From positions 11,730,050-11,769,587 of the forward strand of contig NC_057753.1 in the NCBI RefSeq assembly GCF_004010195.1: a stretch of DNA of 39,538 nucleotides. The letters run 5' to 3'. Under the pieces are notes generated by a model. The model was not told the DNA's origin and made no database searches. It saw only the letters and a program-made list of their open reading frames with translations. This DNA is from Chiloscyllium plagiosum. Lineage: Eukaryota. The position numbers and the translations under genes were made by a program. Shown one piece after another: positions 3,473 through 34,588 of this stretch (its first letter is position 1; each line of letters begins with the position of its first letter).

Positions 3473-3588
3473 GTTTAGATCAGAGTGGTGCTGGAAAAGC
3501 ACAGCAGGTCAGGCAGCATCCGAGGAGCAGGAAAATCGACATTTAGGGCAAAAGCCCTTTATCAGCCCTTCTTTTCCAGCATCACACT
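3441..3588 (-). mobile_element. Penelope-like terminal repeat (degenerate hammerhead) with short inverted arm, inserted in CR1
   Basis: GTGAGGACTGCAGATGCTGG...CAGCAGGTCAGGCAGCATC; flanked by imperfect duplication CTTGATCAGATGAGC / CTTAACCAGATGGGC. Confidence 0.75.
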
Positions 3589-4658
3589 TAACCAGATGGG
3601 CCAATGGGCTGAGGAGCGGCAGATGGAGTTTAATTCAGATAAATGCGAGGTGCCGCATTTTGGAAAAGCAAATCAGAGTAGGACTTGTGCACTTAATGGT
3701 AAGATCCTAGGGAGTGTTGCTGAACAAAGAGACCTTGGAGTACAGGTTCATAGTTTCTTGAGAGTCACAGATAGATAGGATGGTGAAGAAGGTGTTTGGT
3801 ATGCTTTCCTTTATTGGTCAGAGCATTGAGTATAGGAGTTGGGAGGTCATGCTGCGGCCACTTTTGGAATATTACGAGCATTTCTGGTCTCCTTCCTATC
3901 GGAAAGATGTTCTGAAACTTGAAAGGGTTCAGAAAAAATTTACAAGGATGTTGCCAGGGTTGGAGGGTTTGAGCTACAGGGAGAGGCTGAATAGGCTGGG
4001 GCTGTTTTCCCTGGAGTGTTGGAGGCTGAAGGGTGACGTTATAGAGGTTTATCAAATCATGAGGGGGCATGGATAGGATAAATAGACAAAGTATTTTCCT
4101 GGCATGAGGGAGTCCAGAACTAGAGGTCATAAGTTTTGGGTGAGAGGGTAAAGATATAAAAGGGACCTAAGGGGCAACTTTTTCACACAGAGGGTGGTGC
4201 GTGTATGGAATGAGCTGCCAGAGGAAGTGGTGGGAGGCTGGTACAACACTCAAAAGACATCTGGATGGGTATGTGAATAGGAACGGTTCGAGGGATGTGG
4301 GACAAGTGCTAGGAAATGGGACTAGATTGGGTTAGGGTATCTGGGTCAGCATGGACGAGTTGGACCAAATTGTCTGTTTCTGTGCTGTACATCTCTCTGA
4401 CTCGACGATTCTAATTGTCGGTGAGAATTCAAATGAGATGTTCATTGGCGGAACTGAACTTTGCACCCAAGATCGATTCAGGTTTGAAGTTAATGTTCTT
4501 CATTTTATTGCAAATGAGTTCCTGGTGAGAGCTCTTCGATGAAGGGAACAAATTGCACTTTTACAAAATAAAACACTGCAGCCCCGAGCAATGGACAGAA
4601 CATTAAACCCTGGCTTGTTATTGGGACTGTTAATGACGTCAATAACAGTGTTAAATTA

Positions 4659-5297: not shown

Positions 5298-5405
5298 GGT
5301 GCGGGTGACCCGTTAGACAGTCAGTTGAAGCCACACTCAATCTCTATCCTCTGTGACTGATGTGCTGCTTTTCTTCGGCTGTGTAACTGGTCAGAGCTTT
5401 TTCCA

Positions 5406-5609
5406 GGAGAAAGTGAGGACTGCAGATGCTGGAGATCAGAGCTGAAAATGTGTTGCTGGAAAAGCGCAGCAGGTCAGGCAGCATCCAAGGAGCAGGAGAA
5501 TCGACGTTTCAGGATTCCTGAAGAAGGGCTCATGCCCGAAACGTCGATTCTCCTGCTCCTTGGATGCTGCCTGACCTGCTGCGCTTTTCCAGCAACACAT
5601 TTTCAGCTC
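5406..5609. mobile_element. Fold-back Penelope-derived insertion with TSD
   Basis: Perfect 72-bp inverted arms 5439-5510 / 5538-5609; TSD TCAGAGCTTT(T/C)TCCA at 5391-5405 and 5608-5622. Confidence 0.85.
5518..5545 (+). ncRNA. Minimal type I hammerhead ribozyme core (Penelope family A)
   Basis: CTGAAGA-A-GGGC-TCAT-GCCC-GAAA-CGTC; palindromic ACGT helix III; stem I weak. Confidence 0.65.
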
Positions 5610-6009
5610 AGAGCTTTCTCCACCCTGGAATACTCTCACTCAGGTCATGTATTTTCAGTCTCAGCAAAGTTTGAAATCATTTCCCCGCAGGCAGAACCGA
5701 GAAATGACTCTCTCTTTCCACGTTCAGACGCCTTTGATCTTCACCTCTTGATGAATGCAGTCACTCTGAAAGGTGTTAATGTGATGATGGGGGTTGACCT
5801 CCCTATCTCCAGTGCCCTGCAAAAGGAGTTTATAAACAGTCCTCACTTCCAGCACAAATCTTACTCTTACACACTCGTCCTTCCCCTCTGGGCTGCATTG
5901 AAAAAAAAAACAACAAAGTGCTGGATAATTCTTCTCCTTTGAACAGACTGGTGCACTTGGAAGGCAATAAAGATGGTGCTGGTACCACAACATGCATCTA
6001 CACAAAGAT

Positions 6010-6375
6010 GGGGATCGCGCATGCGCCCTATGGGGCAGCCTTTGCGTTGTTAATGCACCCGCGTAAAACGGGGCCATCACAATTGGCAGTAACTCCGGCC
6101 AATAGGGCGGAGAGGGGCGGGGCCAGACCCCGCGTGGGAGCGGCTCGCCCTCCAACCAATCAGAGTGAATGGAGGCGGCCGCAAGCGGGGAGGTCCTCCA
6201 ACCAATGAGAATAAAGGTGGGCCGGTCCTCCAACCAATCGAAGCAAAGCGGCTGGATTAAAACTAGGGTGGGAGGGAAACTGGTCCGCCAACCAATCCAA
6301 GTAAAACGGGCTGGGCCTCCAGCCAGTAGCAGGCAACGGGGCGGGGCTGGTCCTCCAACCAATGGGAATGAATCG
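6010..6375 (-). promoter_or_regulatory. CpG-rich promoter of ZNF-A with CCAAT array, GC boxes and NRF1-like site
   Basis: CCAAT at 6099, 6156, 6202, 6234, 6292, 6359; GGGGCGGGG near 6114 and 6338; GCGCATGCGC near 6018. Confidence 0.75.
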
Positions 6376-6444
6376 GGAAACAAAGCCAGAAGTTAAAAAT
6401 CACCCAACACCAGGTTTTCGTCCAACAGGTTTATTTGGAAGCGC

Positions 6445-6473
6445 TAGCTTTCGGAGCGCTGCTCCTTCATCAG
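6445..6473 (-). ncRNA. Minimal hammerhead core (family B), stem I mismatched
   Basis: Reverse complement CTGATGA-A-GGAGC-AGC-GCTCC-GAAA-GCTA. Confidence 0.6.
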
Positions 6474-6511
6474 GGGGTTGTGGAGTACACGATCATAAGA
6501 CACAGAATTTA

Positions 6512-6787
6512 TTAGATTACATTACAGTGTGGAAACAGGCCCTTCAGCCCAACAAGTCCACACCGACCCGCCGAAGCGCAACCCACCCATACCCCTACAT
6601 TTACCCCTTACCTAACACTACGGGCAATTTAGCATGGCCAATTCACCTGACCTGCACATCTTTGGACTGTGGGAGGAAACCGGAGCACCCGGNNNNNNNN
6701 NNNNNNNNNNNNNNNNNNNNNNNNTGAACCCTGGTCTCCAGCGCTGTGAGGCAGCAGTGCTAACCACTGTGCCACCGTGCCGCCCAC
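6512..6787 (-). mobile_element. HE1 SINE (left copy of head-to-head pair; contains N gap)
   Basis: Reverse complement of HE1 from TTAGATTAC tail to CCGCCCAC head. Confidence 0.9.
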
Positions 6788-6794
6788 AAAGTTA

Positions 6795-7117
6795 GTGGGC
6801 GGCACGGTGGCACTGTGGTTAGCACTGCTGCCTCACAGGACCAGAGACCCGGGTTCAATTCCCGCCTCAGGTGACTGTGTGGAGTTTGCACGTTCTCCCC
6901 GTGTCTGTGTGGGTTTCCTCCGGGTGCTCCGGTTTCCTCCCACAATCCAAAGATGTGCAGGTCAGGTGAATAGGCCATGCTAAATTGCCCGTAGTGTTAG
7001 GTAAGGGGTAAATGTAGGGGTATGGGTGGGTTACGCTTCGGCGGGTCGGTGTGGACTTGTTGGGCCGAAGGGCCTGTTTCCACACTGTAATGTAATCTAA
7101 TCTAATGTAATCTAATC
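6795..7117 (+). mobile_element. HE1 SINE, full length (right copy)
   Basis: A box TGGCACTGTGG, B box GGTTCAATTCC, V-domain, (TAATC)n tail. Confidence 0.92.
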
Positions 7118-7524
7118 TTATAGCAAGTTTACAGTGTGATGCAAGTGAAATCATACATTGAAAAATACCTTGATTGTTTGTTAAGTCTCTCATCTGTTAG
7201 AATGACCATGATAGTTTCACTCCTTTGATATGTAAATCACAAAACTTTTTTTTAGAAGTAACATTCGCAGGTTAGTTTTAACAATTGGTGTCAGCCCAGA
7301 TAAGATCTTAAGATGTTGAAGGTGTCTGTCCCCTGTGTTTTGTTGTCTGTGCCATAATGTTTAGACTGATTCTAATCTAAGAAGTGAGTTGACAGAGTCT
7401 TACATGGATTCATGCAGTTTTTGAGCAAGGTACAATGTAACTCTGCAAGTACAAATTCACCCCACAAACGTATATGTGGACATGTGGGATTTTGGGGTTT
7501 TTTTTCAACCAAACTCATACACGC

Positions 7525-8520
7525 TGATCAGATATCTAAATTAACCTAGCCCCATCTGCCAGCACTTGGCTCACATCTCCCTCAACCCTTCCCATTCATA
7601 TACCCATCCAGATGCCTTTTAAATAGGGGAAGCAATGGCCAGGTGGTATTATCACTGGACTGTTTATCCAGAGACCCAGCTAATGTTCTGGGAATCCAGG
7701 TTGCTAGGGCAGATAGTGGAATTTGAATTCAATGAAACAAGATCTGGAATTAAGGGTCTAACAATGACCGTGAATCCATTGTCGATTGTCAGGAAAACCC
7801 ATTTGGTTCACTCATTTCCTTTAGGGAACGAAACTGCCATGCTTACCTTGTCTGACCTACATGTGACTCCAGACCCAAAGCAATGTGGTTGACTCTTAAC
7901 TGCCCTCTGGGCAATTAGGGATGGGCAATAAATGCTGTGCCCAGCCAGTGGTGCCCTCATCCCATGAATGAATAAAGAAAGCAAAAATATTGTAATTGTA
8001 CCAGCCTCCACCACTTTTTCTGGCAGCTCATTCCATACATGCACCACACTCTGCATGAAAGAGTCACCCCTCATGTCCCTTTTATATCTTTCCCCTCTCA
8101 CCCTGACCTTATGCCCTCTAGTTCTGGACTCACCCACCCCAGGGAAAAGACCTTGTCTATTTACCCTATCCATGCCCCCTCATGATTTTATAAACCTCTA
8201 TAAGGTCACCGCTCAGCCTCCAATGCTCCAGCCTCTCCCCGTAGCTCAAACCCTCCAACCCTGGCAACATCCTTGTAAATCTTTTCTGAACCCTTTCAAG
8301 TTTCACAACGTCATTCGGGCAGAAGGGAGACCAGAATTACACACAGTGTTCCAGAAGTGGCTTAACCAATGTCCTATACAGCCGCAATATGACCTCCCAA
8401 CTTCTACACTCAGTGCGCTGACTAATAAAGACAAGCGTACCAAATGCCTTCTTCGCTATGCTGTATACCTGTATACCTCCACTTTCAAGGAGCTATGATC
8501 TCGCACTCCAAGATCTCTTC
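7525..8520 (-). mobile_element. CR1/HER1 LINE 3' fragment
   Basis: Minus translation SRTRGH..VWNELPE; same 3' tail as other copies. Confidence 0.85.
7626..7985 (+). mobile_element. Second tRNA-derived SINE family nested in CR1
   Basis: TGGCCAGGTGG A-box-like head; tail GGGCAATTAGGGATGGGCAATAAATGC...A-rich; flanked by AAATA duplication; homologous to 26229-26490. Confidence 0.7.
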
Positions 8521-8825
8521 ATTTCAGATGTATCTTAAATGACGTTTAAGCAATTAAGGACTGACAATAATTCCTAGCCAGCAATGCCCTTATCCCAAAA
8601 ATAAATTCAGAATCTCATCCCAGTTGTCTCAGCCTGTGGATCCATAGCAATGTGCTTGACTCTGAATCTGCTGTCTGCCCCAATTAGAGAAGGGAAATGA
8701 ATCCCATGAACGAATAAAAATCAAGTCGTCAGAACACAAATTCCTCAACCACTTCACAATCCACTACTCTGTCCCTGATCTCCCGTTGTCATTCCAAAAT
8801 CCTAAAGCATTTTGTCACATCACAA

Positions 8826-9307
8826 CACGGTGGCTCGGGGGTTAGTGCTGCTGCCTCACAGCACCAGGGACCCGGGTTCGATTCCAGCCTCGGACAACTG
8901 TCTGTGTGGATTTGCAAATTCGCGTGGGTTTCCTCCAGGTGCTCCGGTTCCCTCCCACAATCCAAAGATGTGCAGGTTAGGATGGATTGGCCGTGCTAAA
9001 TTACTCATAGTGCCCAGGGATGTGCAGGTTAGAGTGGATTGGCCGTGCTAAATTACCCATAGTGCCCAGGGATGTGCAGGTTAGAGTGGATTGGCCAAGG
9101 TAAATTACCCATAGTGCCCAGGGATGTGCGGGTCAGGGTGGATTGGCCATGCTAAATTCCCCATAGTGCCCAGAGATGTGCAGGTGAGGTGCATTTGTCA
9201 GGGATAAATGTAGAGTAATGGGGAATGGGTCTGGATGGGTTAATCTTCAGTGGGGCAGTGTGGACCTGTTGGGCTGAAGGGCCTGTTTCCACACGGTAGG
9301 GATTCTA
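8826..9307 (+). mobile_element. HE1 SINE with internal 52-bp tandem expansion (4 units plus a partial)
   Basis: GATGTGC unit starts at 8967, 9019, 9071, 9123, 9175. Confidence 0.88.
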
Positions 9308-9399
9308 AGCTCAGAAGAATGACTGTCTGACTGAATGAATACAACAGCTGATACATTGAGTGAATGAATGAATACCATGAAACTCCTAAATGCTTAGCC

Positions 9400-9600
9400 A
9401 TCTTTCCTTAGAATGCCTCCAATCCAGCTTTCCGCCCCGCGACAGTTCTCCAACCAATGTCTTGTCGTGAGTGACATTCTCCGGGACGGTGACACAGGTA
9501 AAGCCACCATCCCCGTTCTTCCTGACGTCTCTGCAGCCTTCGACGAGGTTGAACGCACCATCCACCCAATGCATCTCATCCGATGGCTCCCAATTCAGCG
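9400..9600 (+). mobile_element. L2-clade LINE RT remnant
   Basis: SDILRDGDTGKATIPVLPDVSAAFDEVE resembles NDIL...LLDLSAAFDTVD. Confidence 0.6.
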
Positions 9601-9644
9601 TTCTTGACAACGGAGCTTCGTTTTGAATCAACTTTAAAAGAGGC

Positions 9645-10452
9645 CAAGTCGCAGAGCACAGAAACGGGCCCTTTGGCCCAACCAGTCCGTGCCGACCCTA
9701 ATCCCACCTAAACTAGTCCCATCTGCTTGCTCCTGGCCACTCGTTCATGTCCTTATCCAAATGTCTTTTAAATGTTGTAAGTGTACCCGCATCCACCACT
9801 TCCTCCGGCAGATCGTTCCACGCGCAAACCACTCTATATAAAAAAAGGTTGCCTCACATCTTTTTGAAATCTCTCTCCTCTCGCCATGAAAATTAGATTA
9901 GATTAGATTACAGTCTGGAAACAGGCCCTTCGGCCCAACAAGTCCACACCGACCCGCAGAAGCGAAACCCACCCATACCCCTACATTTACCCCTTACCTA
10001 ACACTACGGGCAATTTAGTATGGCCAATTCACCTGACCCTGCACATCTTTGGACTGTGGGAGGAAACCGGAGCACCCGGAGGAAACCCACGCAGACACGG
10101 GGAGAACGTGCAAACTCCACACAGTCAGTCGCCTGAGGCGGGAATTGAACCCGGGTCTCAGGCGATGTGAGGCAGCAGTGCTAACCACTGTGCCACCGTG
10201 CCGCCCACTTTGTGCCCCTTTGTCTTGAAAGCCCCCATCCTCAGGGAAAGACACCTGCCATTCACCTTATCTGCGCCCCTCATGACTTTCTAAACCTCAA
10301 CACTCCAGTGAAAAAACTCCCAGCCTCTCCTGATAACTCAAACCCCAGCAGTATCCTGGTAACTCTCGTCCGAACCCTCTCCAGCTTAATAATATCCTTC
10401 CTATAACATGCACACAGTACTCCAGAAGAGGCCTCACCAATGTCTGGTACGA
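9645..10452 (-). mobile_element. CR1 LINE 3' fragment interrupted by HE1
   Basis: CR1 tail GAAACGGGCCCTTTGGCCCAAC; ORF2 C-terminal similarity on both sides of the SINE. Confidence 0.75.
9893..10208 (-). mobile_element. HE1 SINE, full length
   Basis: (TTAGA)n tail through CCGCCCAC head. Confidence 0.92.
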
Positions 10453-10838
10453 GTTAGGACAAGCTTATCTTCCCTGAAGCAAACGACAGCAACAAACCCA
10501 GGTAATTGATTTACAGATTAACCCAGTCGACATTTACTTTCCTTTGTTACCGGTGTTGAGAACGAGTGAAGGACTTCCATCAGTTTTCACAGCACCAACT
10601 CTTGGTCTTTAATCTCCGTCCAGTTCCTGACCGTCACGTAACCTCGCTCTGTGTCCCCGTGAACAATGCTCACTTCACTCAACAGTGTGTTCACTCGCCC
10701 GTTTTTATCACAAAGCTGCGACATTCAGTTCGAACGGAGTCTCCTACATGAGCAGTTTCGAGGCTTCCCTTGTCTGCGACGAGCCTTTCGTAACAGATTT
10801 GATTAACTCCCCGCGTTACGCAAAAGCCACTCGCCGCA

Positions 10839-11261
10839 TCACTCATGAGCCTGTTGGTGTTTCAGCAGGTGGGATAGCTGAGCGAATCCCTTCCTGCACA
10901 CAGCACAGGCGAACGGCCGCTCCCCGGTGTGAAGCCGCTGGTGTATCAGCAGGTTGCACGACTGAGAGAATCCCTTCCCGCACACAGAGCAGGTAAATGG
11001 CCTCTCGCCGGTGTGAATGCGCCCGTGTGTCTCTAGGTGCTGCAGGCGAGTGAACCCCTTCCCACACTCGGGGCAGACGAAGGGACTTTCCCGGGTGTGG
11101 GTACGCTGGTGTCTGTGCAGGTGGGATGAGTCAGCGAACCCTTTCCCACACTCGGCGCAGGTGAACGGCCTCTCCCCAGTGTGACTGCGTCGATGGATCT
11201 CAACCTCAGATGGGGTTCGGAATCCCTTCCCACAGTCCCCACATTTCCACGGTTTCTCCAT
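10839..11261 (-). CDS. C2H2 zinc-finger protein ZNF-B, 5 fingers (alternative in-frame ATG at 11348)
   Basis: Open frame [14 protein letters not shown]...HQQAHE*; five complete fingers with canonical linkers; acceptor CTGACAG ending at 11648. Confidence 0.88.
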
Positions 11262-11617
11262 AGTGTGAGGATTGGGCTGATGCTGGTCGTCTACATAAAG
11301 AACACACACATCAGTTTCCCCCCTGCTATGAATGATATAAATATTCATCAGCCTGTGTAAGCTTTTTCATCCAGTCCCTCTCACTCAGGATTGTAACTGG
11401 TTCAAGGCCCTTCCACAGTCAGTGCGCTGAAACATTCTTACTCCTGAGTGTACGGGCATCTTGGTACTCTTGCAGTCTCATCAATGTTTGAAATCTTTCC
11501 CACAAACAGAACAGACAAAGGTACTCCTCCCAAAGACTGATGGTACTCAGGTCCGTTTGAATCAAGTGACTCCGCCAGATCTTGAAGTGATGTTTCCAGT
11601 CTGGGAATACTCTCATT

Positions 11618-11891
11618 TTAAGATTCTGCAAATGGAGATTACAAACCCTGTCAGTACGGGATAGAAATGCGTGAACAGACATCTCTAGTTTCTGCAGAAC
11701 ATGGTTTTCCCTTCTTCCCGATAGCTGAAAATGTCCCGTCCCACATACCCTCTCTTAAGATTCTGCAAATGGAGATTACAAACCCTGTCAGTACGGGATA
11801 GAAATGCGTGAACAGACATCTCTAGTTTCTGCAGAATATGGTTTTCCCTTCTTCTCGATAGCTGAAAATGTCCCGTCCCACATACCCTCTC
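11618..11891. repeat. 137-bp direct tandem duplication including the ZNF-B splice acceptor
   Basis: 11618-11754 repeated at 11755-11891 with about 2 substitutions. Confidence 0.9.
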
Positions 11892-11934
11892 CCTCTGCCT
11901 CCACCCATCGCTTTCCATCAATCCATTTCCCCCA

Positions 11935-11958
11935 TCTCTCTCTCTCTCTCTCTCTCTC
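11935..11958. repeat. (TC)n microsatellite
   Basis: Visible dinucleotide run. Confidence 0.9.
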
Positions 11959-12156
11959 TTTCTATCTCCCTCTATACTTGGGATGGGTTCAACTCTCCAG
12001 CCCTTCTTATGCAGAATGGAAGTTAAATCGATCATTTTCTCTTCTGATTCCAGTGACCCTAAAACTCCCAGTGAATCAAAATGGGTCATTTTATCTGTCA
12101 CGGGAAAAGCCTGCAGGTTTTAGTATCTTCGAACTGACTTGCTCACAAATGCTATC

Positions 12157-12313
12157 ATAGAATCCCTACAGTGTGGAAGTAGGGCATTTGACCCATCAAG
12201 TCCACACCGCCCCTCTGAAGAGCATCCCACCCCTCTACCTATCTCCTGTAACCTTGCACTTCCCATGGCTAATCTACACATCTTTGCACTGTGGGAGGAA
12301 CCCACGCAGACAC
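12157..12313 (-). mobile_element. HE1 SINE 3' half
   Basis: CCCTACAGTGTGGAA tail and V-domain, head missing. Confidence 0.75.
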
Positions 12314-12439
12314 AGAACATAGACTTCACACCTAATGTTTAAAAACCTGAGCTACCTTGAGAATGTAATTTAAAAGCAGTTCTGGGATTTATATATCAAA
12401 GAACAGAAACCAGCAGATCCCATTATAAAAGATGAAATT

Positions 12440-12607
12440 AGGAGAAAGTGAGGACTACAGATGCTGGAGATCAGAGCTGAAAAATGTGTTACTGGAAAAG
12501 CGCAGCAGGTCAGGCAGCATCCAAGGAGCAGGAGAACCGACGTTCGATTCTCCTGCTCCTTGGATGCTGCCTGACCTGCTGCGCTTTTCCAGCAACACAT
12601 TTTTCAG
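12440..12607. mobile_element. Fold-back Penelope-derived insertion with TSD
   Basis: 64-bp inverted arms 12477-12540 / 12544-12607 (2 mismatches); TSD TAAA(A/C)GATGAAATT at 12426-12439 and 12608-12621. Confidence 0.85.
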
Positions 12608-12703
12608 TAAACGATGAAATTCTCAATCAAGGATTGTTACTGTACATGACACTGGACTCCTGTGGCTCTATATTCTGTGAACATGATCTTAACCTCCATA
12701 ACC

Positions 12704-12738
12704 CACCTGATGAAGGAGCAGTGCTCTGAAAGCTAGTG
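12704..12738 (+). ncRNA. Minimal type I hammerhead ribozyme (family B)
   Basis: CAC-CTGATGA-A-GGAGC-AGT-GCTCT-GAAA-GCTA-GTG: stem I CAC/GTG, stem II, palindromic AGCT. Confidence 0.7.
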
Positions 12739-12852
12739 CTTCCAAATAATCCGGTTGGACTATAACCCGATGTTGTGTGATTTTTAACATAGGACATTAC
12801 AGCGCAGTACAGGACCTTCGGCCCTTGATATTGTAGCGACCAGTGAAAAGGG

Positions 12853-13030
12853 GGAGAAGATGCAAACTCCACCCAGACAGTCGCCCGAGGGTGGGATCAA
12901 ACCCAGGTCCCCAGCACTGCAAAGCAGCAGTGCTAACCACTGTGCTGCAATGTTATTGCACACCTCTGGACCAGGTGGGATTTGAACCCCAGGTCTCCCT
13001 ACCCTAGAGGTAGAGACATTATCACTGCAG
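12853..13030 (-). mobile_element. HE1 head fragment plus an adjacent tRNA-derived SINE head
   Basis: B-box-like sequences on the minus strand (GGTTTGATCCC, GGTTCAAATCCC). Confidence 0.6.
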
Positions 13031-13269
13031 GAGCCTACCTGTAGCCTTGGGGCCTCCAGCTTGCGGGTGAATCTTCCCCATCCACCTTCCAGGGTTTCCG
13101 TCTTGATCAGAGCTTTACTGATTCCCACGCCCCTCCCAAAGTGTTACTCCTTATTTATTATTTCCCTCTCCCCTGCCTCCTCGAATTGCACGGCTAGAGT
13201 TGACTCCAGTGTCTCTCTGCCCCCAACCCCCAACATCCCACCGCCTCTGACTGCAGTAGCCATCGCTCC

Positions 13270-13425
13270 CTGTACCAGCTGAGCACAGCTTCCGGGAACA
13301 GTGTCGCGCACGCTCAGTCAGGCCCCCTGGGGCGGAGACCCGGGACTCGATGCACTTGCGCGGCACAACCGCGGCGATGGCGATAGGCCGTATTCACACG
13401 CGCGGGGCGTGCTGGGTAACCTTCC
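13270..13425. promoter_or_regulatory. CpG-rich putative bidirectional promoter between ZNF-B (-) and ZNF-C (+)
   Basis: Local CpG cluster, GGGGCGG box, candidate donors on both strands (TGG|GTAACC + near 13416; CAG|GTAGGC - near 13039). Confidence 0.5.
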
Positions 13426-13624
13426 CTCCATGTGTTACATTGCAAATGCAAGAATCTCTGGCAGGGCTGGGAGCAAGAGATTCCTGAATTTTTTTTAAAC
13501 CAGTTCCGAAGTTCGAGGGTGGATGTTTGAGACTATCAATCAGCACAGCCCGCGCGAAACCCGCAGCAAATAATTTATCTCCTGGGAAACATTTATGTTG
13601 TCCACTGAATATTGTCAGTGTTTT

Positions 13625-13965
13625 GGTTCAAAGACAGAACTAGCTGGAGAAACGCAGACGGTCTGGCAACATCTGTGTAGAGAAAGCAGAGTTAACGTTT
13701 CGAGTTCAGTGACCCTTCTTCAGAACTTCATCATCCTCATGACCTGACCCACCGGTCAATCTTCCTTCTCACCTATTCACTCCGCCCTATCATCTTCTCT
13801 CAGCTACCTTCTTCCCAGCCCCACCTCCCAATCATTTATCTCTCCACTCTGCAGGCACCCTGTCTTTACTCCTGATGAAGGGCTTTTGCCCGAAGTGTCG
13901 ATTTTCCTGCTCCTCCGATGCTACCTGACCTGCTGTGTTTTTTCCAGAACCACTCTAATCTTGAC
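13625..13965. mobile_element. Two Penelope terminal repeats in opposite orientation around a 3' UTR piece
   Basis: Minus-strand family C repeat 13625-13727; plus-strand family A repeat ending CCAGAACCACTCTAATCTTGAC. Confidence 0.65.
13691..13726 (-). ncRNA. Minimal type I hammerhead ribozyme (family C)
   Basis: Reverse complement GTT-CTGAAGA-A-GGGT-CACTGA-ACTC-GAAA-CGTT-AAC: stem I GTT/AAC, palindromic ACGT. Confidence 0.7.
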
Positions 13966-14183
13966 TGTTAGGCAAGGCAGTTCCAGGATTCTGACCCAGA
14001 GACAGCCGGTATACTTCCACCCTGTCTTTACTCCTGATGAAGGGCTTTTGCCCGAAATGTCGATTTTCCTGCTTCTCCGATGCTACCTGACCTGCTGTGT
14101 TTTTTTTCCAGAACCACTCTAATCTTGACTGTTAGGGAAGGCAGTTCCAGGATTCTGACCCAGAGACAGCCGGTATACTTCCA
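13856..14183 (+). repeat. 162-bp tandem duplication, each unit with a hammerhead-like core (13872-13899, 14034-14061)
   Basis: CACCCTGTCTTTACTCCTGATGAAGGGCTTTTGCCCGAA at 13856 and 14018. Confidence 0.9.
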
Positions 14184-15364
14184 AGTCGGGACAGTGAGTG
14201 GCCCGGATGGGGAGCTTGCGTGGGCTGGTGTTTTCATCTGTCTGCTGCCCCCCTGTCTTTCTAAATGCAAGCGGTCAGGAGGTTGGAAGGTGCCGTTTAA
14301 GACCTTTAGTGAATTTCCGAAGTGTGTTTTGTTAGCGCTTGACAGCGCCAGGGACCCCAGTTCGATGCCAGCCTTGGGGGCAACTGTCAGTGTAGAGTTT
14401 ACACGTTCTCCCACAGAGTCCAGACATGTGCTGGCTCGGAGGAGTAGACAATGCGGAGTTATGCGGGCAGGGTGTGGGTCTGGGTCGGATGTCTCCCGAG
14501 TCTGTACAGACTGTAAGGCATCAGTGGTTGAGAGAGTGGATGCATGTGCATGTTATTTTGTCCTGGATGGTTATAGAGTGAGAGAGGTCTCCAGCACGAG
14601 AGGAAGGCCCTTTGGCCCATTGAGACAAAAACAAGCAACTATTCTACTCCTATTTACCTGCACTTGGCTCACAGCCTTGTTTGCCTTGACATTGTTAGTG
14701 CATATCTAAATACTTCTTAAATGTGACGAGGATTTCTGCCTCCACCACCCTTAGAAGCAGCGGGAGCTGAGATGACTGAGCTCTAACAACCACAACCAAC
14801 TTCATTTGTGCCAGGTATGAGTCCTACAAGCGAAGCGTTTTCATTCCCCAAATTCCTCAGTTTTGACAGGAATCCTTGATGCTGCACTCAGTCAATTCTC
14901 ACCTCACCTCTGGAATCCAGCTCTCTTGACCCTGTTTGAACTGAGATTGTGATGAAGTCAGGAACTGAGTGGCCCTGGCAGAATCCAAACTGGCTGTCAC
15001 TGAGCAGGTTATTGCTGAGCCAGAGCTGCTTGATAGCTCTGTTGATGACAACTTCCATCACTTTCCTGCTGGTGGAGGGTAGGCTGATGGAGTGTCCAGT
15101 TTAGTTTGTCCTGCCTTTTTTGTGTACAGGACACATTTGGGCAACTTGCCACTGAGTCAGGTTTGTGCCAGCGTTTTGGCTAGACCGGAAAAGCTGAGCT
15201 AGGGCTGAGGTATATCTGGAGCAGAATTCTTCAGCGTTGGTAAAATCCTGTTACCAGGCCTGGGGAGGGGAACGGAGGATTTGTAAACACCAAACTCACA
15301 CCCACAAAAAGTGTTGGTCTCTTTTTGAATTTCTAACCTAAAGTTGTCTACAATCTTCCTGCAG

Positions 15365-15578
15365 AGTAGAACCAGAAGATTGACAGATGTGAAGGTGAGG
15401 TCAAACGCCACGTTGAGATTTGACTGGGGTCACTCATTTCTTCAGGATCTGAACGTCATAAGTCTTGGAACATGGAAGGACAAAAGGTTTGTCTGTTCTG
15501 CCTATGGGTGGGGGATTTCAAGTGTTAGTTTGAATGGAAAAGCGCTGTGATTCACAAACGTGGTCAGGTCAACTCCAG
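15365..15578 (+). other. Probable non-coding exon derived from a ZNF exon leader (fossil finger)
   Basis: Acceptor CTTCCTGCAG (15364), donor CAG|GTAAGC (15579); GAACATGGAAGGA..TTTGTCTGTTCTG matches ZNF-B and ZNF-D leaders. Confidence 0.5.
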
Positions 15579-15744
15579 GTAAGCTGCGTTCAGTTCTGAG
15601 CAATTAGCCTCAGTCGAGGTCGCTTTAGAGGGAGTGCAACTGGTTCACCTGGTGACCTCCCAACTGCAAGTGCTAAAATACAAAGGGACATTTCACAAAC
15701 ATGTCATTGTGGCACAGAAGGGGTTTACCTTAAAACGCGTGTAC

Positions 15745-15980
15745 CAACAGATTCAAGAACAGCTTCTTCCCCGCTCTTATTGGACTTCTGAATGGACCTC
15801 TCCAATTACAAACGTAATGTTGACCTTGCTCTTTATGCACCGCCTCTGAAGCTGTAACATTGTATTCCTCCCTCTGACCTATTACCCTAATTATCTCTGT
15901 ATGGTATAATCTGCCGTACTATATGCAAAACAAAACTTTTCGCTGTACCTAGTTATTTGTGGCAACACTACATCAAATTA
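15745..15980 (+). mobile_element. LINE 3' end remnant (Rex1/L2-like)
   Basis: ACCAACAGATTCAAGAACAGCTTCTTCCCC (TNRFKNSFFP) then UTR; similar to 16720-16880. Confidence 0.5.
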
Positions 15981-16481
15981 AAAATTCAGCCCATTGAGTC
16001 CAAGTACTGGGGACAGAGAGTCTGAGTGTGATGGGGTTTTACAGCTTTGGGAGAGTGAGAGGGGATAAATATTGATAACAATTAGATTAGTTGGTAAATT
16101 ACTAACTCGGTCTGACCGTGATGATTTCTGTAATGCCCTTCTACAGGGAATTCAAAAGGGGAGAGGTTACATTCAGAAGGCTCGAATCAAACAACACAGC
16201 AAGTCACTTGAGACATCAGGACCTGAATATCATCAGCCATTGCATATGGAAGGGGAAGTGCGTATCTCTTTGCTCTGACTTTGAGGATGCATTTTAAGGG
16301 TCAGTGTGGCTGGAAAAAGTACTGAGGGACGGACACACACACACGTGTGAGAGTGTTCCAGTGCAGCAGTGAGCGTGGAAGGACCTTTAACCAGTTACAC
16401 AGCCTGAAGAAAATAAAACACACCATTCAAAGTGTCTGCACACAAGGATTGAACCTGAAGAGACAGATGGACACCAGCTCC

Positions 16482-16718
16482 ATGGTGAAACTGTGGAGAC
16501 GCGCGGACTGCGGGAAGGGATTCAATCACCCATCTCGGCTGGAATTTCACCGTCGGGCTCACACTGGGGAGAAGCCGTGGGAGTGCGGGGACTGCGGGAA
16601 GGGATTCAATTATCACTACCTGCTGGAAACCCATCAACGCAGCCACACCGGGGAGAGGCCGGACATGTGCTCCGAATGCGGGAAGGCGTTCGCTCAGTCG
16701 GCCTGCCTGATGTCACAC
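16482..16718 (+). pseudogene. Truncated C2H2 zinc-finger pseudogene ZNF-C
   Basis: [10 protein letters not shown] (first Cys lost), one intact finger, third finger broken at LMSHP by a LINE-tail-like sequence; acceptor CTTCTACAG at 16146. Confidence 0.75.
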
Positions 16719-18409
16719 CCTTCTGAAAGCAGCTCTCAAATTTCAAAACCTATTGTTGAGCTCGCCCTGTGTGCACCTTCTCCGCACCTGTAACATCACA
16801 TCCCTCGCTCTGTTCTATAACCCTCTGATCTCTGTGCAGCACGATCTGCCTGTACTGAAAACTTTTCACCGGCCTGTCAGTGTCTGGATTATTAAGCAAC
16901 AGGACTCAGATTATGCATGTAACAGGAAGCTCGTTATTAATGTAATTGGTCTCTGGGCATTGCCGTGACAGGGCATTAATGACGACACAAAAGCGGTTGG
17001 AAAGGCTAGAATTAGCCAGGATTAACCCAAGAGTCCACAGAGGGTTGAGAGAGTGGATGTGGGAGTACTGCGTGTGAAAACAGGCTCTGGCTATACATAG
17101 AGAGTAAAGAAAGTGGGTTATTTTACCAGTGAAGCCAAAAGGGTGCAGAGGAGTCGTGATAAGGATTCAAAGTCATGAACAATTCCAACAGAGTAAGTGA
17201 GGAGAAAGTGTCTCCGGTGCGACACCGAGATATCGAAGGCTCTAGGCTAAGTGCTGGAACGTGGGATTAGAATACAGAGGAATCTCAACATTCTGAATAT
17301 TAATTGCCTGAATTTTGGACTATCTGAGGAAGATCTCAAGGTCTCATAAAAGCGTTCCATCAAAGAGGTGTTACCAACACTGGTGTGACAATCATATTTT
17401 CTGTTGACAATGATTAAAAGTTGAAGTCGGCTTACTGAAGTGCTGCCAAGAACAGTCCTGGGCATTGTTGGGAGCACAGGCACCACTTCCAAATGACTGA
17501 CCTCCCTCCCTCCCCTCTCTCTCTCCAAACAAAGACAGACAGAGTGACGATCTGGGCAAATTCAGAACACTGAATATTCTCAAATACAGACCCCTGATCA
17601 TCTCCCCAACATTGTACAGGGCAGAGCGGAACCTTGTTGACTGGCCCACTGTGCTGCTGCCTACTCTCCTGAATGGGGAGTGGACTTGCTCTGTCAATCC
17701 CACTGAAGTGAAGCAGCGGCGGGGAGAGGCTACAGCAATGCTGCAGGTTCCTTGCACACAAGTGTGTATCTGCTCAGGAACAAACCCCTGAGACACAGGG
17801 AGGGAGCAAGGCAAGGCAGAGTGAGGAAAACTCCCGAGTCCCAGAGGAAAGGCATTGAATCAGTCATCTGAATAATCAATTGTCCGTACGAAATACTGCC
17901 CGCCCATCTCATTCAGATAATCAGATCCTCTGCAGTTAGCTGCTTGCTTTAGACTGGCACAGACCCCCGATGGGCTGAAGGGCCTTTATCTGTGCTGTAG
18001 ATCTCCATGGCTCTGAATAGGAGGGGACTTTGCAGAAGAAAGGAAGATTAGAGAAGGGGCAGTAGTTTGTGTAATGGTGGGGTTGAGAGTTTTGTTTCCC
18101 CCCCCCCCTCAGGTCGGGGGAAGACGGTGAATGTGAAGATGAAAGAGAGACAACCACAAACATTGCCTGTGAATGTGGGCGTTTGCACAGTCATTGGTTT
18201 TGTAGGAGTAAGGTTGAGAGACTCGGAATCGGGCCTCGTTGGAAAGGTGAGCTCTGACAGGTTATAACTGGAGAGAAACAGGAGAAAGGTACGAGCGGAG
18301 GTTTTCAAAAAAATACCTTTGGGGGGGGAAAGCTGCCTGTTGATTCATGGTATCTGATCGGATGGCCTCAAGGTAGTCTTAGTGACACATTTCATGAGCT
18401 CCTGACACT

Positions 18410-19372
18410 TGTGACAGGGACCAGCCCACCCCCTCAAAACATATTAAGCAGACAGCCTAGACCCAACCCTTTTCTTATTTTAAAATGCATCGCATTCCAG
18501 ATGCAATTTGATTGGTCAAACTACCAGGCTTGAAGCAAAACACACTTTATTCTTATACTATAGTTCAAAGAAAGAAAACATTGGAATAACTTAACTCTAT
18601 GAGAAAACTCAACAGAATAATGGATGACTTTACGACTGAATAATCACGGTTCCAGGATAGTATAACGTTTCATAAACACACCCCCTTGGCAAAGGCAAAC
18701 TTAGTAAAATAGATTGTCTCGATTAGATTAGCTTAGATTCCCTACAGTGTGGAAACAGGCCCTTTGGCCCGACAAGTCCACACCAACCCTCCGAAGAGTA
18801 ACCCACCCAGACCCATTTCCCTCTGACTAATGCAACTAACACTATGGGCAATGTAGCTTGGCCAATCCATCTGATCTGCAAGTTTTTTTTTTAGGTTGTG
18901 GGAGGAAACCGGAGCACCCAGAGGAAACCCACCCAGACACGGGAGAATGTGCAAACTCCACACAGATCGTGTTACCCAAGGCTGGAATCAAACCTGGGTC
19001 CCTGGCGCTGTGAGGCTGCAGTGCTAACCAACGAGCCACCATGCAATTCTACAGACCAGTAGGCAAAACATCAAGAGAAGCCTCTGAGACTGAGAGGGTG
19101 GCAGGGACAGATGTACTGCAGCTTCCAAACTCGATTTCAAGACCCCAGCAACTGCTCCTAAAAGACTACAACCAATAATCCTGGCTCTGGGGTGGGAGCT
19201 TGATCTCACCCATTCAGGCTGCTTCTATTGTTCCAACTTCAAAACAAACAAAAAAAAATCCCAAGCCCTCTCAAGCTGTTTACTTTATTGGATTCAAATA
19301 GACTTTTCGGTACTCCTGTCTTAAAACCTCTCTTCAAAACAAAAATCCAGGACCTGTTAAAGCCATCATACA
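18410..19372. mobile_element. Possible solo LTR with nested HE1
   Basis: TGTGA...ATACA termini around about 640 bp of non-SINE sequence; no clear TSD. Confidence 0.3.
18721..19043 (-). mobile_element. HE1 SINE
   Basis: Tail, V-domain and head in reverse. Confidence 0.88.
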
Positions 19373-19877
19373 ATGAGAGTGGGGGAGACCCAGAGAGCAC
19401 AGAAACAAGAGTAGATCATTCTATTGCACCGGCTCTGCCATTCAGTTAGATTATGCTGATCATTTTCCACCTGCATTATTCCCATCATGTCATCAGTGCC
19501 CAGGAAACTATTGATTTCTGTCTCAAACATTCTCAGTCATTGGAGCATCCAGAAACCTCTGGTTTGAGAATGCCAAAGAGTCGACATCCTCTGAGTGGAA
19601 AAAGGTCGTCCTTAAACGACTTGCTTCTTACTACATCCACTGGTTCCACACGCTGAAGCCAGGGGAAATGTACTGTGAACATCCACTTTGTGAGAATCTT
19701 GTATAAATGAGATCATCAATCATGTTATGAAGCCCAGCTGATGGTAATGGTGCACAAATAGATCATAGGTTTTATTTTTTGGTGTTTAGTTAGGATGGTA
19801 GTCACTGAATATATTCATATGAGGCTGCCAATGTTCTTTTAACAAAATAGTTGATTACACAACAAAAATCCTGTATA

Positions 19878-20303
19878 TATAGAGTCATAGAGATGTTCAG
19901 CATGGTAACAGACCCTTCGGTCCAACCCATCCATGCCAAACAGATATCCCAACCCAACATAGTCCCACCTGCCAGCACCCGGCCCATATCCCTCCAAACC
20001 CTTCCTATTCATATACCCATCCAAATGCCTCTTAAATGTCACAACTGTACCAGCCTCCACCACTTCTTCTGGCAGCTCATTCCATACACGTACCATCCTC
20101 TGCCTGAAAACGTTGCCCCTTAGGTCTCTTTTATATCTTTCCCCTCTCACCTTAAACCTATGCCCTCTAGTTCTAGACTCCCCAACCCCAGGGAAAAGAC
20201 TTTGCCTATTTATCCTATCCATGCCCCTCATAATTTTGTAAACCTCTAGAAGGTCACCCCTCAGCCTCCGATGCTCCAGGGAAAACAGCCCCAGCTTGTT
20301 TAA
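19878..20303 (-). mobile_element. CR1/HER1 LINE 3' fragment
   Basis: SRTRGHRFKVRGERYKRDLRGNVF..VWNELPEEVV. Confidence 0.9.
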
Positions 20304-20359
20304 GCCATCTCCCAGTGATGTCCTTTGCAGATACTCAATCCCAGTACAGTGCCATCTGA

Positions 20360-20730
20360 CCCATTTTTAAATGTTGCAGCTATAGCTCATCCCGAATTGC
20401 CCTCCAGGTGGTAATGAGCTGTCTTCCTGAACATCTGCAGATCTTGTAGGTGTCAGATCACCTATAATACTGTCAGGAAAGAAGTTCCAGGGTTTTGACC
20501 TGGTGACGGTGAAAGAATTTGCAATGCACTTCCACGTTCAGGGTGGAGTGTAGTTGGGAAGGAACTTGCAGAAGGCGGGGTTCCCACATGCTTGCTCTCC
20601 TTGTCCTTTGAGATGACAGAGATCAAGGGTTTGGAAGTTGGAAGGAGTCGTCTTGATTGCACTGCAGTTTGGAGATGGTGTTTCTGCCACGGTCCATCGG
20701 TGAGGAGGCAGTGAATGTCGAAAATGGTGG
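20360..20730 (-). mobile_element. Old LINE 3' region sharing a tail with the second SINE family
   Basis: Reverse complement GGGCAATTCGGGATGAGC; related fragments at 13965-14310 and 38420-38560. Confidence 0.5.
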
Positions 20731-20890
20731 ATGGAGTGGGCTTTACATCTCTTCTGTTTCATTCACCTACAGAAGCTTTTACCATTGACCTTTTGTTTCC
20801 ACAGAAGCTTCTATCCACCTTCTGTTTTTGCCTTCATCGGTTTCTTGGCTGGATTCTAAATTGCTCCCATTCCCCTGCGTACCATGTCTT

Positions 20891-21200
20891 ATTAGAATCC
20901 CTACAGTGTGGAAACAGGCCATTTGGCCCAACCAGTCCACACCGACCCTCCGAAGAGTAACCCACCCAGACCCATTTCCCCCTGACTAATGCGCCTAACA
21001 CTAGGGCAATTTAGCAAGACCAATTCACCCTGAGCTGCAAATCTTTGGACTGTGGGAGGAAACTGGAGCACCCGGAGGAAACCCACGCAGACGCAGCGGG
21101 GAGAATGTGCAAACTCCACACAGACAGTCACCCCCAAGGCTGGAGTCGAACCTGGGTCCCTGGCGCTGTGAGGCAGCAGTGCTAACCACTGAGCCAGTGT
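20891..21200 (-). mobile_element. HE1 SINE
   Basis: Full reverse-orientation copy. Confidence 0.88.
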
Positions 21201-21551
21201 TCTTACAATCATACAATCCTTTGATCTAATTCAATCTTTAAGTCCTTTTGTTGTCTGAAGTAGATTTATTTTTCCTGTCGCATACAAAATCCTCTAAGAA
21301 ATGATTTTTTTTTGTCGACCGGGTAGTGCTTCTTCAAGTAAAAGCTGCTGCTGGTTGATTTTCAAGCCGTTTAGTGTATCTAGCCAATCCGTCGTAACAA
21401 ATTGCTGCTCACACCGTTCATTCCAAATCTGTACAACAGAAACTGTGCGTGCATATCACATCAAATTAATTAAACACTTTACAATGTCATGACCATTAAT
21501 TCCCAAAGCAACCCTCGACATTTTCACGGAAAGGTGGGCGCTGCAGGGAGT

Positions 21552-21870
21552 GATTAGATTAGATTCCCTACAGTGTGGAAACAGGCACCTCGGCCTGACC
21601 AGTCCACACCGACCCTCCGAAGAGTAACCCACCCAGACCCATTTTCCCTCTGACTAATGCACCTAATACTACGGGCAATTTAGTACAGCCAATTCACCTG
21701 ACCTGCACAGCTTTGGACTGTGAGCGGAAACCGGAGCACCCGGAGGAAACTCACGCAGACATGGGGAGAACGTGCAAACTCCACACAGACCGTTGCCCAA
21801 GGCTAGATTTGAACCTGGGTCCCTGGTGCTGTGAGGCAGCAGTGCTAACCACTGAGCCACCGTGCCGCCC
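21552..21870 (-). mobile_element. HE1 SINE
   Basis: Full reverse-orientation copy with (GATTA)n tail. Confidence 0.9.
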
Positions 21871-23151
21871 CAAATGTGTAGTGCAGTGCATTATTTCCCC
21901 CTCCAACTCTATTTTGATTTAGTCCCTGCCCTCCCCTTCACTGTTTGATCACACAGCATTGCCCTTTGATGTGAAGGGCACTGCTTGTCACTGGCCACTC
22001 TTTTCACAGTGGCGGAAATTGAATCAAGATTTGTACACCCCCTGTTGCCTTTTCACTGTGTCTCTCACTCCTGCAGACAGACAACATAGGTGCTGGGGGA
22101 AAAAAGAAACAACAAAAAAAAAATACAAAATTTCCCAAAGCTTCCTGAACAGTAAGGTTACTAATTGCCCATTTTCATTACATAATATGAAATCCGAAAC
22201 AGCTTGATCCCCATGATGCTCGACTCCAGAAACCTATCTCACACAAACTCCAGAAATTTGCCCTGCGCGGTATTGGTACTGGATAGCTTTACCCAGTCTA
22301 TCTGGAAACTGAAGTCACCCCTTGTTACCAATGGGACAGGCACACCAGTTCAGACTAGGCGTTCAGACAAGGTCGTCACATCTCCCCGGGGTGGAATTGT
22401 CTCATTCTCAACCTGGACTTTTAGTTTTGTTGCTGTCAATGATTTCAAAAACTGTGTTCTGTGGTTATAGGACAACTTGAGAAATTGATGAGAGGAGACA
22501 GGAGTCCAGCCTACGATCGTTTATTTCTTGCGCGTGCAGCGAGACCTGGTCTTATTACCGTGAAGTGTAAAACCTCTTCGGGTGGGTTACAGAAACCTCA
22601 GATTCTTACACAGAACGTCACAACATTTAAACACTACTTCCCACACTGCTCTACCTGGGTGTCTCACATTATCTGCTGTTTTATACAAAGGTCAACGCTC
22701 TGCTAGTATGACTTCTCGGCTCCTCGTCTCGACTGTCTTTGTGTCCTGATTGTTATGTACATTTGTTGCGGTTCCCAGTTGCTTTGCTATTACTAATGAC
22801 AGGACGAAAGCTTTAACCCTTGGCTCACTCAACCCCTTCAGCGTCCCCCACTCGGCCTAGCCCAAGGTAGTGAACTTACTGGTAATGCATTTCCCTTTAT
22901 GTCACCCATTGGCCAGCTATCAAGTGTAGGGGTTGGAGAGGCACTTCGGTATGCCATCTGTACAGAATGGACCAGTGCAATAAGCCCCCTGCTCTCCGAC
23001 CCTGCGTTCTCCAACTCTCAACTCCTTACCATTCTCCTGTGTGTCCTTTCGGTGCTTTCGCCCAAGTAGTTCAGGTATACGACCAATACCAGCTGAGCAG
23101 TAATCAGAACAGATGATCCTAACACATGGATAGATCTGTTCATTTGATCCC

Positions 23152-23995
23152 CAGTGACAGAGCAGTATGGCATGGAAACAGACCCTTGGGTCCAACCAGT
23201 CTCAGCTGAGCATAATCTCAAAGTAAAGTAGTCCCACTTGCTTGCACTTGGCCTATCTCTCTCCAAACGTTTCTCCTGTAAATACCTTTTAAATTGTTGT
23301 AACTGCACACACATCCACTTCCTCTGAAAGTTCAGTCGACTCGCAATCCATTTTCCATGTGAAAAACAATTGCCTCTCGTGTCTTTTTAAAAAATGTCCC
23401 CCCCTCACCTTAAACAATGGCCCCCTAATCTTGAAATGGCCCACCCTAGGGAAAAGACTCTCGAGATTCACCTTCCACGCTCCAGTGAAACAGGTCCCAG
23501 CCCATCCAGCATCTCCTTATAGCTCAAAACCCTCTGTCCCCGGCAACATCCTGACACATCTCTTCAACTGAATAATATCCTTCTGATAACAGGGCACAGT
23601 ACGGCAGAAGAGACCTCACCAACGTCCTGTACAACTGCAACGTGACGTTCTCAGCTCCTACACTCAAAGGTGTGAGCAATGAAGAAAGTGAGGACTGCAG
23701 ATGCTGGAGATCAGAGCTGAAAATGTGTTGCTGGAAAAGCGCAGCAGGTCAGGCAGCATCCAGGGAACAGGAGAATCGACGTTTCGGGCATGATTCCTGA
23801 AGAAGGGCTCATCCCCGAAACGTCGATTCTCCTGCTCCTTGGATGCTGCCTGACCTGCTGCGCTTTTCCAGCAACACATTTTCAGCTCTGAGCAATGAAG
23901 GCAAGCGTGCTAAGTGCCTTCTTAACCACCCTGTCTATGTGCGACGCAAAGAGTTATGTACCTGAACCCCTCGGTCTCTCAGTTCTACAACAGCA
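23152..23995 (-). mobile_element. CR1 LINE 3' fragment with nested fold-back element
   Basis: CR1 tail CATGGAAACAGACCCTT and degenerate ORF2 C-terminus. Confidence 0.75.
23685..23888. mobile_element. Fold-back Penelope-derived insertion with TSD and hammerhead core (23797-23824)
   Basis: 77-bp inverted arms 23712-23788 / 23814-23890 (2 mismatches); perfect TSD TGAGCAATGAAG at 23673-23684 and 23889-23900. Confidence 0.88.
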
Positions 23996-27565: not shown

Positions 27566-27574
27566 TATTCCCCA

Positions 27575-34374: not shown

Positions 34375-34588
34375 ACAACGCCTCCCGGATTCCGGACTGG
34401 TGCTGGCAGTGACGTTGACCCTTCCGTCCTCTTTTGCAGGTTGAGAAGGAGCTGGGGACCTTGACCAGGAAAGTCAATCCACACCAGATGAAGAGCTGAC
34501 TGGGGGGGGGGGGGTGTGGGGGTCAGAGCACCGTTGACCCGCGGCAGGAGGGACGGGCTGGGCGTAGGCGGCGCCCACCCCCCCGCCC

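Follow-up and report, generated by a model that had tools for sequence, protein, structure and literature searches.

Miniature fold-back insertions of probable Penelope-like origin in a genomic stretch of Chiloscyllium plagiosum

Insertions in which pseudo-long terminal repeats (pLTRs) lie inverted, with a tail, are already published for Penelope-like elements (PLEs; PMC3846280, PMC8557442, PMC11167929). The passages of PMC3846280 on rotifer PLEs describe pLTRs in inverted arrangement, one of which bears a 31-bp tail, together with target-site duplications (TSDs) of 8-10 bp and palindromes at the head-to-head junction, Pen2a_Av having an inverted pLTR, a 31-bp one-sided tail and a 9-bp TSD; the same inverted-pLTR scheme is drawn for the PLE class in Fig. 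2 of PMC8557442. According to the biochemical passages of PMC11167929, a purified anole PLE protein, predicted to be a dimer, nicks and extends both target strands, its reverse transcriptase (RT) has two internal start sites between which the tail lies, and cleavage by the hammerhead ribozyme is not needed, hammerhead mutants inserting normally. The present report concerns a stretch of 39,538 nucleotides of Chiloscyllium plagiosum (assembly GCF_004010195.1, contig NC_057753.1, positions 11,730,050 to 11,769,587 of the forward strand; hereafter the window), in which three short fold-back insertions start at positions 5406, 12440 and 23685. We regard them as miniature non-coding insertions of an endonuclease-bearing PLE, that is, a real and abundant form of the known insertion pattern.

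Comparison of the window with itself returned self-inverted matches at 5433-5615, 12477-12607 and 23711-23891. The insertions to which they belong are real; they measure 168-204 bp and lie between TSDs of 12-15 bp, the range also given in an earlier note on this DNA. Their outer helices comprise 70 uninterrupted bp in 5406, 62 bp with two interruptions in 12440 and 82 bp with three interruptions in 23685, values close to the 64-77 bp given in the earlier note. With folding z-scores of -21.9, -16.9 and -20.5, respectively, and none of 200 shuffled sequences as stable in any of the three cases, their fold-back nature is confirmed. Each consists of two pLTR ends of a PLE placed head to head: the long arm is the 3' end of the element including an unpaired tail, and the short arm is an inverted copy ending where the tail starts, so that the tail (33, 37 and 29 nt in 5406, 12440 and 23685) is found on one arm only. 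The 5406 and 23685 insertions are 96% identical.

The first insertion is composed of the unpaired tail, representing the 3' end of the element (5406-5438, minus strand), the tailed arm, which is 5'-truncated within hammerhead stem II (5439-5513, minus strand), and the tail-less inverted arm (5514-5609, plus strand), which harbours an intact minimal hammerhead core (5518-5545, plus strand) with CUGAAGA, an extra A, a 4-bp stem II, GAAA, a palindromic ACGU and GUC, the cut being predicted after 5545. Its TSDs (5391-5405 and 5608-5622, both plus strand) match over 15 bp with one mismatch, the first 2 nt also fitting the arm end. At 12440, a tailed arm (12440-12544, minus strand; unpaired overhang 12440-12476) and a tail-less arm (12545-12607, plus strand) are flanked by 14-bp TSDs with one mismatch (12426-12439 and 12608-12621, plus strand), and the insertion sits in the 3' end of a second repeat family which itself carries a minimal hammerhead. 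The earlier note had considered the hammerhead of this copy lost entirely at 12541; CUGANGA and stem II are indeed absent, but the GUC region remains. The third insertion has a tailed arm (23685-23793, minus strand; tail 23685-23713), a tail-less arm (23793-23888, plus strand) sharing 1 nt with the other arm and bearing one disrupting change in stem II, and exact 12-bp TSDs (23673-23684 and 23889-23900, plus strand) within a LINE-like (long interspersed nuclear element) 3' fragment, which we take to be of the CR1 type.

As a control for the duplications, 5 of at most 400 random flank pairs reached at least 12 bp with at most one mismatch, pairs containing N being skipped. The outer ends of the insertions differ between copies by a few bases and share 0-3 nt with the target. 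For 23685 the empty state is represented by a paralogous LINE-like copy (3717-3855), in which both flanks overlap by exactly the 12 duplicated bp. Paralogues within the window allowed only part of this comparison for 12440, and for 5406 and a copy at 3441 they gave no information. A wider survey used a single arm with its right flank (5514-5609 plus flank) as reference and compared four sequencing runs, namely two DNA contig sets of one organism (A), a third DNA contig set from a related organism (B) and a run of raw RNA reads, again from A. A contig of organism B holds the 5406 arm end together with its flank, from which it follows that this insertion is older than the split of the two organisms, and the base found there at 5618 makes the two TSD copies match. 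The empty allele of 5406 was not seen in the three DNA runs, where one contig per run has the final 27-29 nt of the arm attached to the right flank. In the loose-end consensus the arm end runs on into the tail in all four runs.

A fourth, looser copy had been claimed at 3441. A degenerate 9-bp duplication (3432-3440/3593-3601, one mismatch) does flank it, but it forms a helix of only 15 bp (z = -1.3; equalled in stability by 19 of 200 shuffles) and is a member of another, more diverged subfamily. Its tailed arm (3441-3565, minus strand) extends to the first base of CUGA and is followed, after a 5-nt filler, by a 19-nt inverted arm (3571-3589, plus strand). A 148-bp tandem duplication (3177-3472, 98% identity) copies the LINE-like flank and the 31-nt tail end of this element, and since both units share the decayed TSD, the tandem duplication is later than the insertion.

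In the three young copies, none of the six arms begins at the predicted cut (C5545^G5546); every start lies 5' of it, at distances from 1-2 to 32 nt. On a common-axis alignment the tail-less arms of 5406, 23685 and 12440 start 32, 32 and 1-2 nt upstream of it and the tailed arms 11, 16 and 5-6 nt. The centres differ between copies, as the earlier note had held, but the tail-less arm begins at the same base in 5406 and 23685, a recurrent breakpoint 4 nt 5' of the CUGA core, so that in these two only one side is copy-specific. The tail-less arm of 5406 carries 21 nt of private 5' sequence and its tailed arm 33 nt, the corresponding values for 23685 being 16 and 29 nt; neither arm of either insertion is therefore a simple copy of the other. 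In the predicted fold of the fold-back RNA the GUC cut site is fully paired (probability 1.0), and finished hairpins could accordingly not release themselves. In view of these arm starts and of the paired cut site, the proposal that the templates were ribozyme-bounded RNAs is mostly unsupported, a minority role of cleavage being possible.

Judged from the alignments, the recurrent breakpoint points to a fixed 5' end of the template, at an initiator-like (Inr-like) site, rather than to self-cleavage. The motif YYANWYY with its A at position -4 from CUGA was found upstream of the copies at 13864 and 39340, although this motif was chosen after the fact and occurs at about 1 in 100 positions of the window. 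An internal promoter with an Inr is described for the Drosophila virilis element in passages of PMC2377424; transcription starts there 46 bp ahead of an intron that ends at helix I (PMC2377424, PMC4209133), and the match to the shark -4 site is consequently a loose one. The three letters preceding 5514 were considered as a copied cap or filler and this was dropped, as these letters can be aligned with stem II, from which they differ by one change of the CpG type. Solo stubs at 27674, 29320 and 33230, three of the seven non-folding copies, also start inside the hammerhead region, and truncation there is thus not special to hairpins.

The family proved to be very large, with 66,475, 58,570 and 74,553 contigs matching the reference arm in the three DNA runs. 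Joints were counted on 15 of 20, of which 8 lie on opposite strands, the 7 same-strand ones being unused; a table of arm-end joints (12 of 68 rows) was left uncounted, the strand geometry of its rows not being given. The opposite-strand joints listed are 5514/5525, 5514/5546, 5514/5548, 5515/5549, 5516/5562, 5519/5562, 5524/5570 and 5573/5609. Six of these eight have one side at 5514-5519, at most 5 nt from the CUGA-side breakpoint, and their other side falls at 5525, 5546, 5548, 5549, 5562 and 5562. Three joints (5514/5525, 5514/5546 and 5514/5548) recur in all three DNA runs of the two organisms, and no single joint dominates among the eight. In three of the seven head-side joints listed, the variable side falls at 5546-5549, 0-3 nt downstream of the cut, and cleavage may have made some of these ends; microhomology from the complementarity of stem I falls at the same place and explains them too. 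Contigs were also seen that join arm end 5609 to arm start 5514 with 2-3 letters between. If these joins are on the same strand, they would represent head-to-tail dimers of the exact tail-less unit, as in retrozymes, the strand geometry of these rows not being given.

De novo formation of the palindromes at integration with priming from both target ends, as suggested in the earlier note, is probably correct, since in both 5406 and 23685 each arm holds sequence absent from the other. Formation at integration is further supported by the variable ends with 0-3 nt of target microhomology and by the many different centres among the joints listed. A GIY-YIG endonuclease would make staggered cuts 12-15 nt apart, and the RT would use the 3'-OH ends of both strands as primers on pLTR RNA. 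Of the two internal start sites, the outer would serve one end and the inner the other, a difference that would leave the tail on one side only; the two pLTRs may reside on one RNA or on two RNAs of one source. One complementary DNA (cDNA) would run off the fixed 5' end of the template just upstream of the uncut hammerhead, an end that would probably be the transcription start given the Inr-like site in two subfamilies, and the other cDNA would stop, or be trimmed, at a variable point within the structured hammerhead region, the two ends then being joined with 0-2 nt of microhomology. The ribozyme would in this scheme mark the breakpoint region by its position at the 5' boundary of the pLTR, with no cleavage required. 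To the mechanism as a whole, in which the insertions are built anew at each integration by two-ended priming with a fixed 5' end and a variable other end, we assign a probability of about 0.55.

Several observations weigh against it. The reference begins at 5514, and arms starting further upstream cannot show as clean joints; perfect palindromes collapse in contigs; joints are incompletely counted; depth gives no copy number; and the joint table is silent on which arm carries the tail. In the 3441 copy it is the tailed arm which reaches CUGA, neither arm of 12440 reaches 5514, and the copy at 31560 is without the Inr-like motif at -4. Furthermore, the arms within a copy share minor variants (an extra T in both arms of 12440 and a minor base at 5531 in both arms of 23685), a pattern which would fit one source RNA but also a snap-back event or a hairpin master. 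Finally, the link of the pLTR family to a PLE open reading frame (ORF) is a lead only.

Among the alternatives, a near-perfect head-to-head palindrome centred at the 5' boundary of the pLTR could have come first, either made at integration or retroposed from hairpin masters, the present centres being later hairpin or cruciform deletions. Every centre in the window is derivable by deletion from such a palindrome, the variants common to both arms would be expected, perfect centres would not be visible in contigs, and some joints reach many times the single-copy depth (5514/5525, for example, 420 against 15.4 in one run, depth being no measure of copy number). Deletions at a palindrome centre are, however, expected to erode both arms, and one side is base-exact at 5514-5515 in four of the eight joints listed and in two of the three window copies. 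Both outer ends vary between copies, with 0-3 nt of overlap with the target, and recurrent joints would also be expected of de novo formation with one side fixed in a family of 66,475 contigs (one run); we consider this succession of events unlikely. Snap-back self-priming, in which one cDNA or antisense template folds and copies back and endonuclease resolution leaves the tail, has a precedent, as passages of PMC3846280 propose an antisense-template origin for the head-to-head junctions of rotifer PLEs. It would account for the arm-shared variants and suits the 3441 copy, where the short arm is wholly contained in the long one; a mirror of hammerhead stem I predicts a 5514/5550 joint, and 5515/5549 with one shared letter is among those listed. 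For 5406 and 23685, where each arm has its private sequence, it would need a second template or a later deletion, and it appears improbable.

Self-cleavage, yielding short RNAs whose cut ends set the turn-around, is in line with the intact core of 5406, with the short arm of 12440 beginning 1-2 nt from the cut and with the three of seven head-side joints listed that have a side at 5546-5549. We hold it to be very improbable, because the six young arms all begin 5' of the cut, the recurrent site lies 32 nt upstream of it and the site is paired in the fold-back; moreover, according to the passages of PMC4209133, cleavage by minimal PLE hammerheads is poor and requires dimers, and those of PMC11167929 report that anole hammerhead mutants insert normally and that no RNA-seq reads ended at the cut. 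The size of about 200 bp, the high copy number and the 96% identity of 5406 and 23685 would suit a miniature inverted-repeat transposable element (MITE) of a DNA transposon copied from one master, a reading to which we give next to no credence: the duplications are of 12, 14 and 15 bp, the ends wander, the centres differ and the same sequence is found unfolded at the 3' end of longer elements. A class II MITE was rejected also on the grounds that the terminal inverted repeats miss one terminus (the 29-37-nt one-sided tail) and that the duplication length is variable; the earlier note had named a single identical centre with TSDs of fixed length as the sign of such an element, and no single centre dominates among the joints listed. 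An assembly or library artefact is hardly credible either. Long hairpins can yield polymerase fold-back chimeras and two N runs occur in the window, but TSDs flank each hairpin, the arms carry separate mutations, and three joints recur throughout the DNA runs, which come from two organisms; one of these joints is also present in 14 RNA reads from 12 starts.

The reading by two-ended priming at each integration can be carried further, in a form that we consider speculative and improbable: the -4 base would be a real transcription start, the pLTR unit of about 130 nt an independent RNA resembling a short interspersed nuclear element (SINE), a "mini-PLE", and two uncut RNAs, paired by a dimeric hammerhead, would be delivered by an RT dimer to both sides of the same staggered cut. 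In that case the ribozyme would be a pairing scaffold rather than scissors, each integration would give rise to a self-contained hairpin of double-stranded RNA (dsRNA) subject to adenosine-to-inosine (A-to-I) editing, and the inverted-pLTR-plus-tail signature of the whole class would be explained. What is added here is the breakpoint fixed on one side, which allows the question of PLE inversion to be put to the test; in these abundant minimal insertions both junctions lie within 200 bp, and counting can separate two-ended priming, snap-back and later deletion.

The insertions are very probably PLE-derived, in agreement with the Penelope origin put forward in the earlier note in preference to a DNA MITE, as indicated by the one-sided tail, the variable duplications and the varied centres. 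Every fold-back arm is a piece of one pLTR that is also present unfolded at seven other places in the window, and upstream C/T-rich sequence continues from three of these seven copies. A scan for the minimal hammerhead motif gave six matches in the window, where 30 shuffles averaged 0.13, those at 5518 and 14034 belonging to the pLTR family; among the fold-backs the core is predicted to be intact only in 5406. The core at 5518-5545 is without helix III, has one additional nucleotide behind A9, contains G10.1-C11.1 and is palindromic at 15.2-16.2, the feature set listed for metazoan PLE minimal hammerheads in passages of PMC4209133. No Rfam hammerhead model matched the window up to E = 1, and all matches to Rfam miRNA families were under their gathering scores, for which reason a miRNA precursor was rejected. 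Scans with the tail pattern returned 0 loci in metagenome, viral and genome contigs. Downstream of the hammerhead, the pLTR has a CTGAC of branch-point type and then a stretch of pyrimidines closing with CAG (5568-5592), which together resemble a splice acceptor.

The non-folding copies comprise two pLTRs in tandem duplicate (13870-14125, plus strand), the first of which runs into upstream sequence resembling a 3' untranslated region (UTR) and whose flank is duplicated along with the copies (13864/14026 pair); two solo tailed stubs (27574-27674, minus strand, starting inside the CUGA core and with an internal deletion; 29207-29324, minus strand, starting in stem II); a solo stub starting near stem II (33230-33300, plus strand); and a longer copy with upstream C/T-rich 3' UTR-like sequence (31559-31800, minus strand). 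The longest copy (39020-39446, plus strand) contains a frameshifted stretch, presumably the end of an ORF, followed by 3' UTR-like sequence, a decayed hammerhead and the pLTR. Beside this 39340 copy, an inverted GIY-YIG-like remnant (38701-38832, minus strand), the sole match to Y[IVT]G[EQK]T in six frames, fell in an Atlas GIY-YIG cluster at 0.89, under its 0.9 line, and is a lead only. Pfam gave 0 families for the five frames tried in this region, a PDB search returned none and a homologue search none of five candidates; P0001, the sole representative match to the region, is a tandem-repeat protein and was dismissed as chance. No RT was found in the window. The opposite strands of the GIY-YIG-like piece (minus) and the ORF-end-like piece (plus) within 38670-39446 suggest an internal inversion.

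Transcripts of the family were detected in the polyA single-cell RNA run of organism A, where 2,145 of 12,955,460 reads, on both strands, matched the arm 5514-5609 and the 5514/5525 joint was crossed by 14 reads from 12 starts. No pile-up of RNA starts or ends was listed on the arm, the library being fragmented and polyA-selected and hence uninformative on transcript ends. Changes of A to G occur at 13 places in RNA against 1-3 in DNA, and the five listed are all higher in one mate class and 4- to 120-fold above DNA. A-to-I editing, which the earlier note had proposed to map, is only suggested by the read mismatches, since non-editing changes are strand-biased too, with an up to 10-fold excess (among the changes listed, to which 61 more belong; the DNA was unmatched to the RNA). 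The family probably supplies this genome with self-contained dsRNA.

The window further contains C2H2 zinc-finger exons, LINE-like 3' fragments, SINE-like repeats, which we assume to be tRNA-SINEs, and several repeat families with minimal hammerhead motifs. Cores at 6473, 12707 and 13723 represent at least two further repeat families, that at 13723 facing the 13864 copy head to head at a distance of about 150 bp. One SINE-like family forms a head-to-head pair (6511-7101) at a single site in the 3' end of the second hammerhead-bearing repeat family, with 98% identity over the outer 182 nt and 89% near the heads, an 11-nt spacer and a flank overlap of only 3-4 bp; its left arm contains an N run (6693-6724). 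The pair may have arisen by two-ended insertion, as the PLE fold-backs may have, or through an error of assembly. Tandem arrays of 37-bp and 52-bp units occupy 1-1507, 8909-9282 and 33868-34397.

In twin priming of L1, both target nicks prime, which results in an inverted 5' part and a TSD; L1 inversions are non-overlapping parts of one RNA, whereas here both arms copy the same pLTR sequence. The palindromic Harbinger MITE of Xenopus, an ADAR target in the passages of Porath et al. 2017 (PMC5625713), is likewise a self-folding repeat of about 200 bp able to form dsRNA alone, but it is of the DNA class with a palindromic consensus, in contrast to the retroposed and asymmetric insertions described here. 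Non-LTR retrozymes, reported from one cartilaginous fish in the portion of the preprint consulted (bioRxiv 10.64898/2026.07.22.740005), are also non-autonomous, pLTR-derived, hammerhead-bearing repeats; they form head-to-tail tandem arrays, and this identity was rejected for the four insertions of the window, which are head to head and not head-to-tail tandem units with a type I hammerhead. With respect to the metazoan PLE minimal hammerheads in the passages of Cervera and de la Pena 2014 (PMC4209133), the present one has a 4-bp stem II and a weak stem I, and no fold-back retains the complete core in more than one arm, where it is sequestered.

In titles and abstract openings, a scope that leaves subscription papers, Repbase and Dfam outside, the papers returned by literature searches contained nothing on miniature shark PLE fold-backs or on a fixed 5' breakpoint. 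Poseidon of Anolis carolinensis (Frangieh et al. 2024, PMC11167929) is similar, in the passages considered, in having its tail, downstream of the hammerhead, bounded by two RT start sites, in the nicking and extension of both strands and in the dispensability of cleavage. Its ORF starts in the hammerhead, while no such open frame is established here, and neither inverted junctions nor a 5' breakpoint at a fixed place are a subject of those passages. The closest relation is to the endonuclease-bearing PLEs, with which, as far as the relevant passages go (Arkhipova et al. 2013, PMC3846280; Craig et al. 2021, PMC8557442), the insertions share the head-to-head pLTRs, the tail of 30-40 bp at one end, the short variable TSD and the hammerhead in the pLTR. 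The TSDs are longer than those of the rotifer PLEs (12-15 against 8-10 bp), and the unit of this very abundant family consists of two pLTR ends only (168-204 bp), with no ORF between them.

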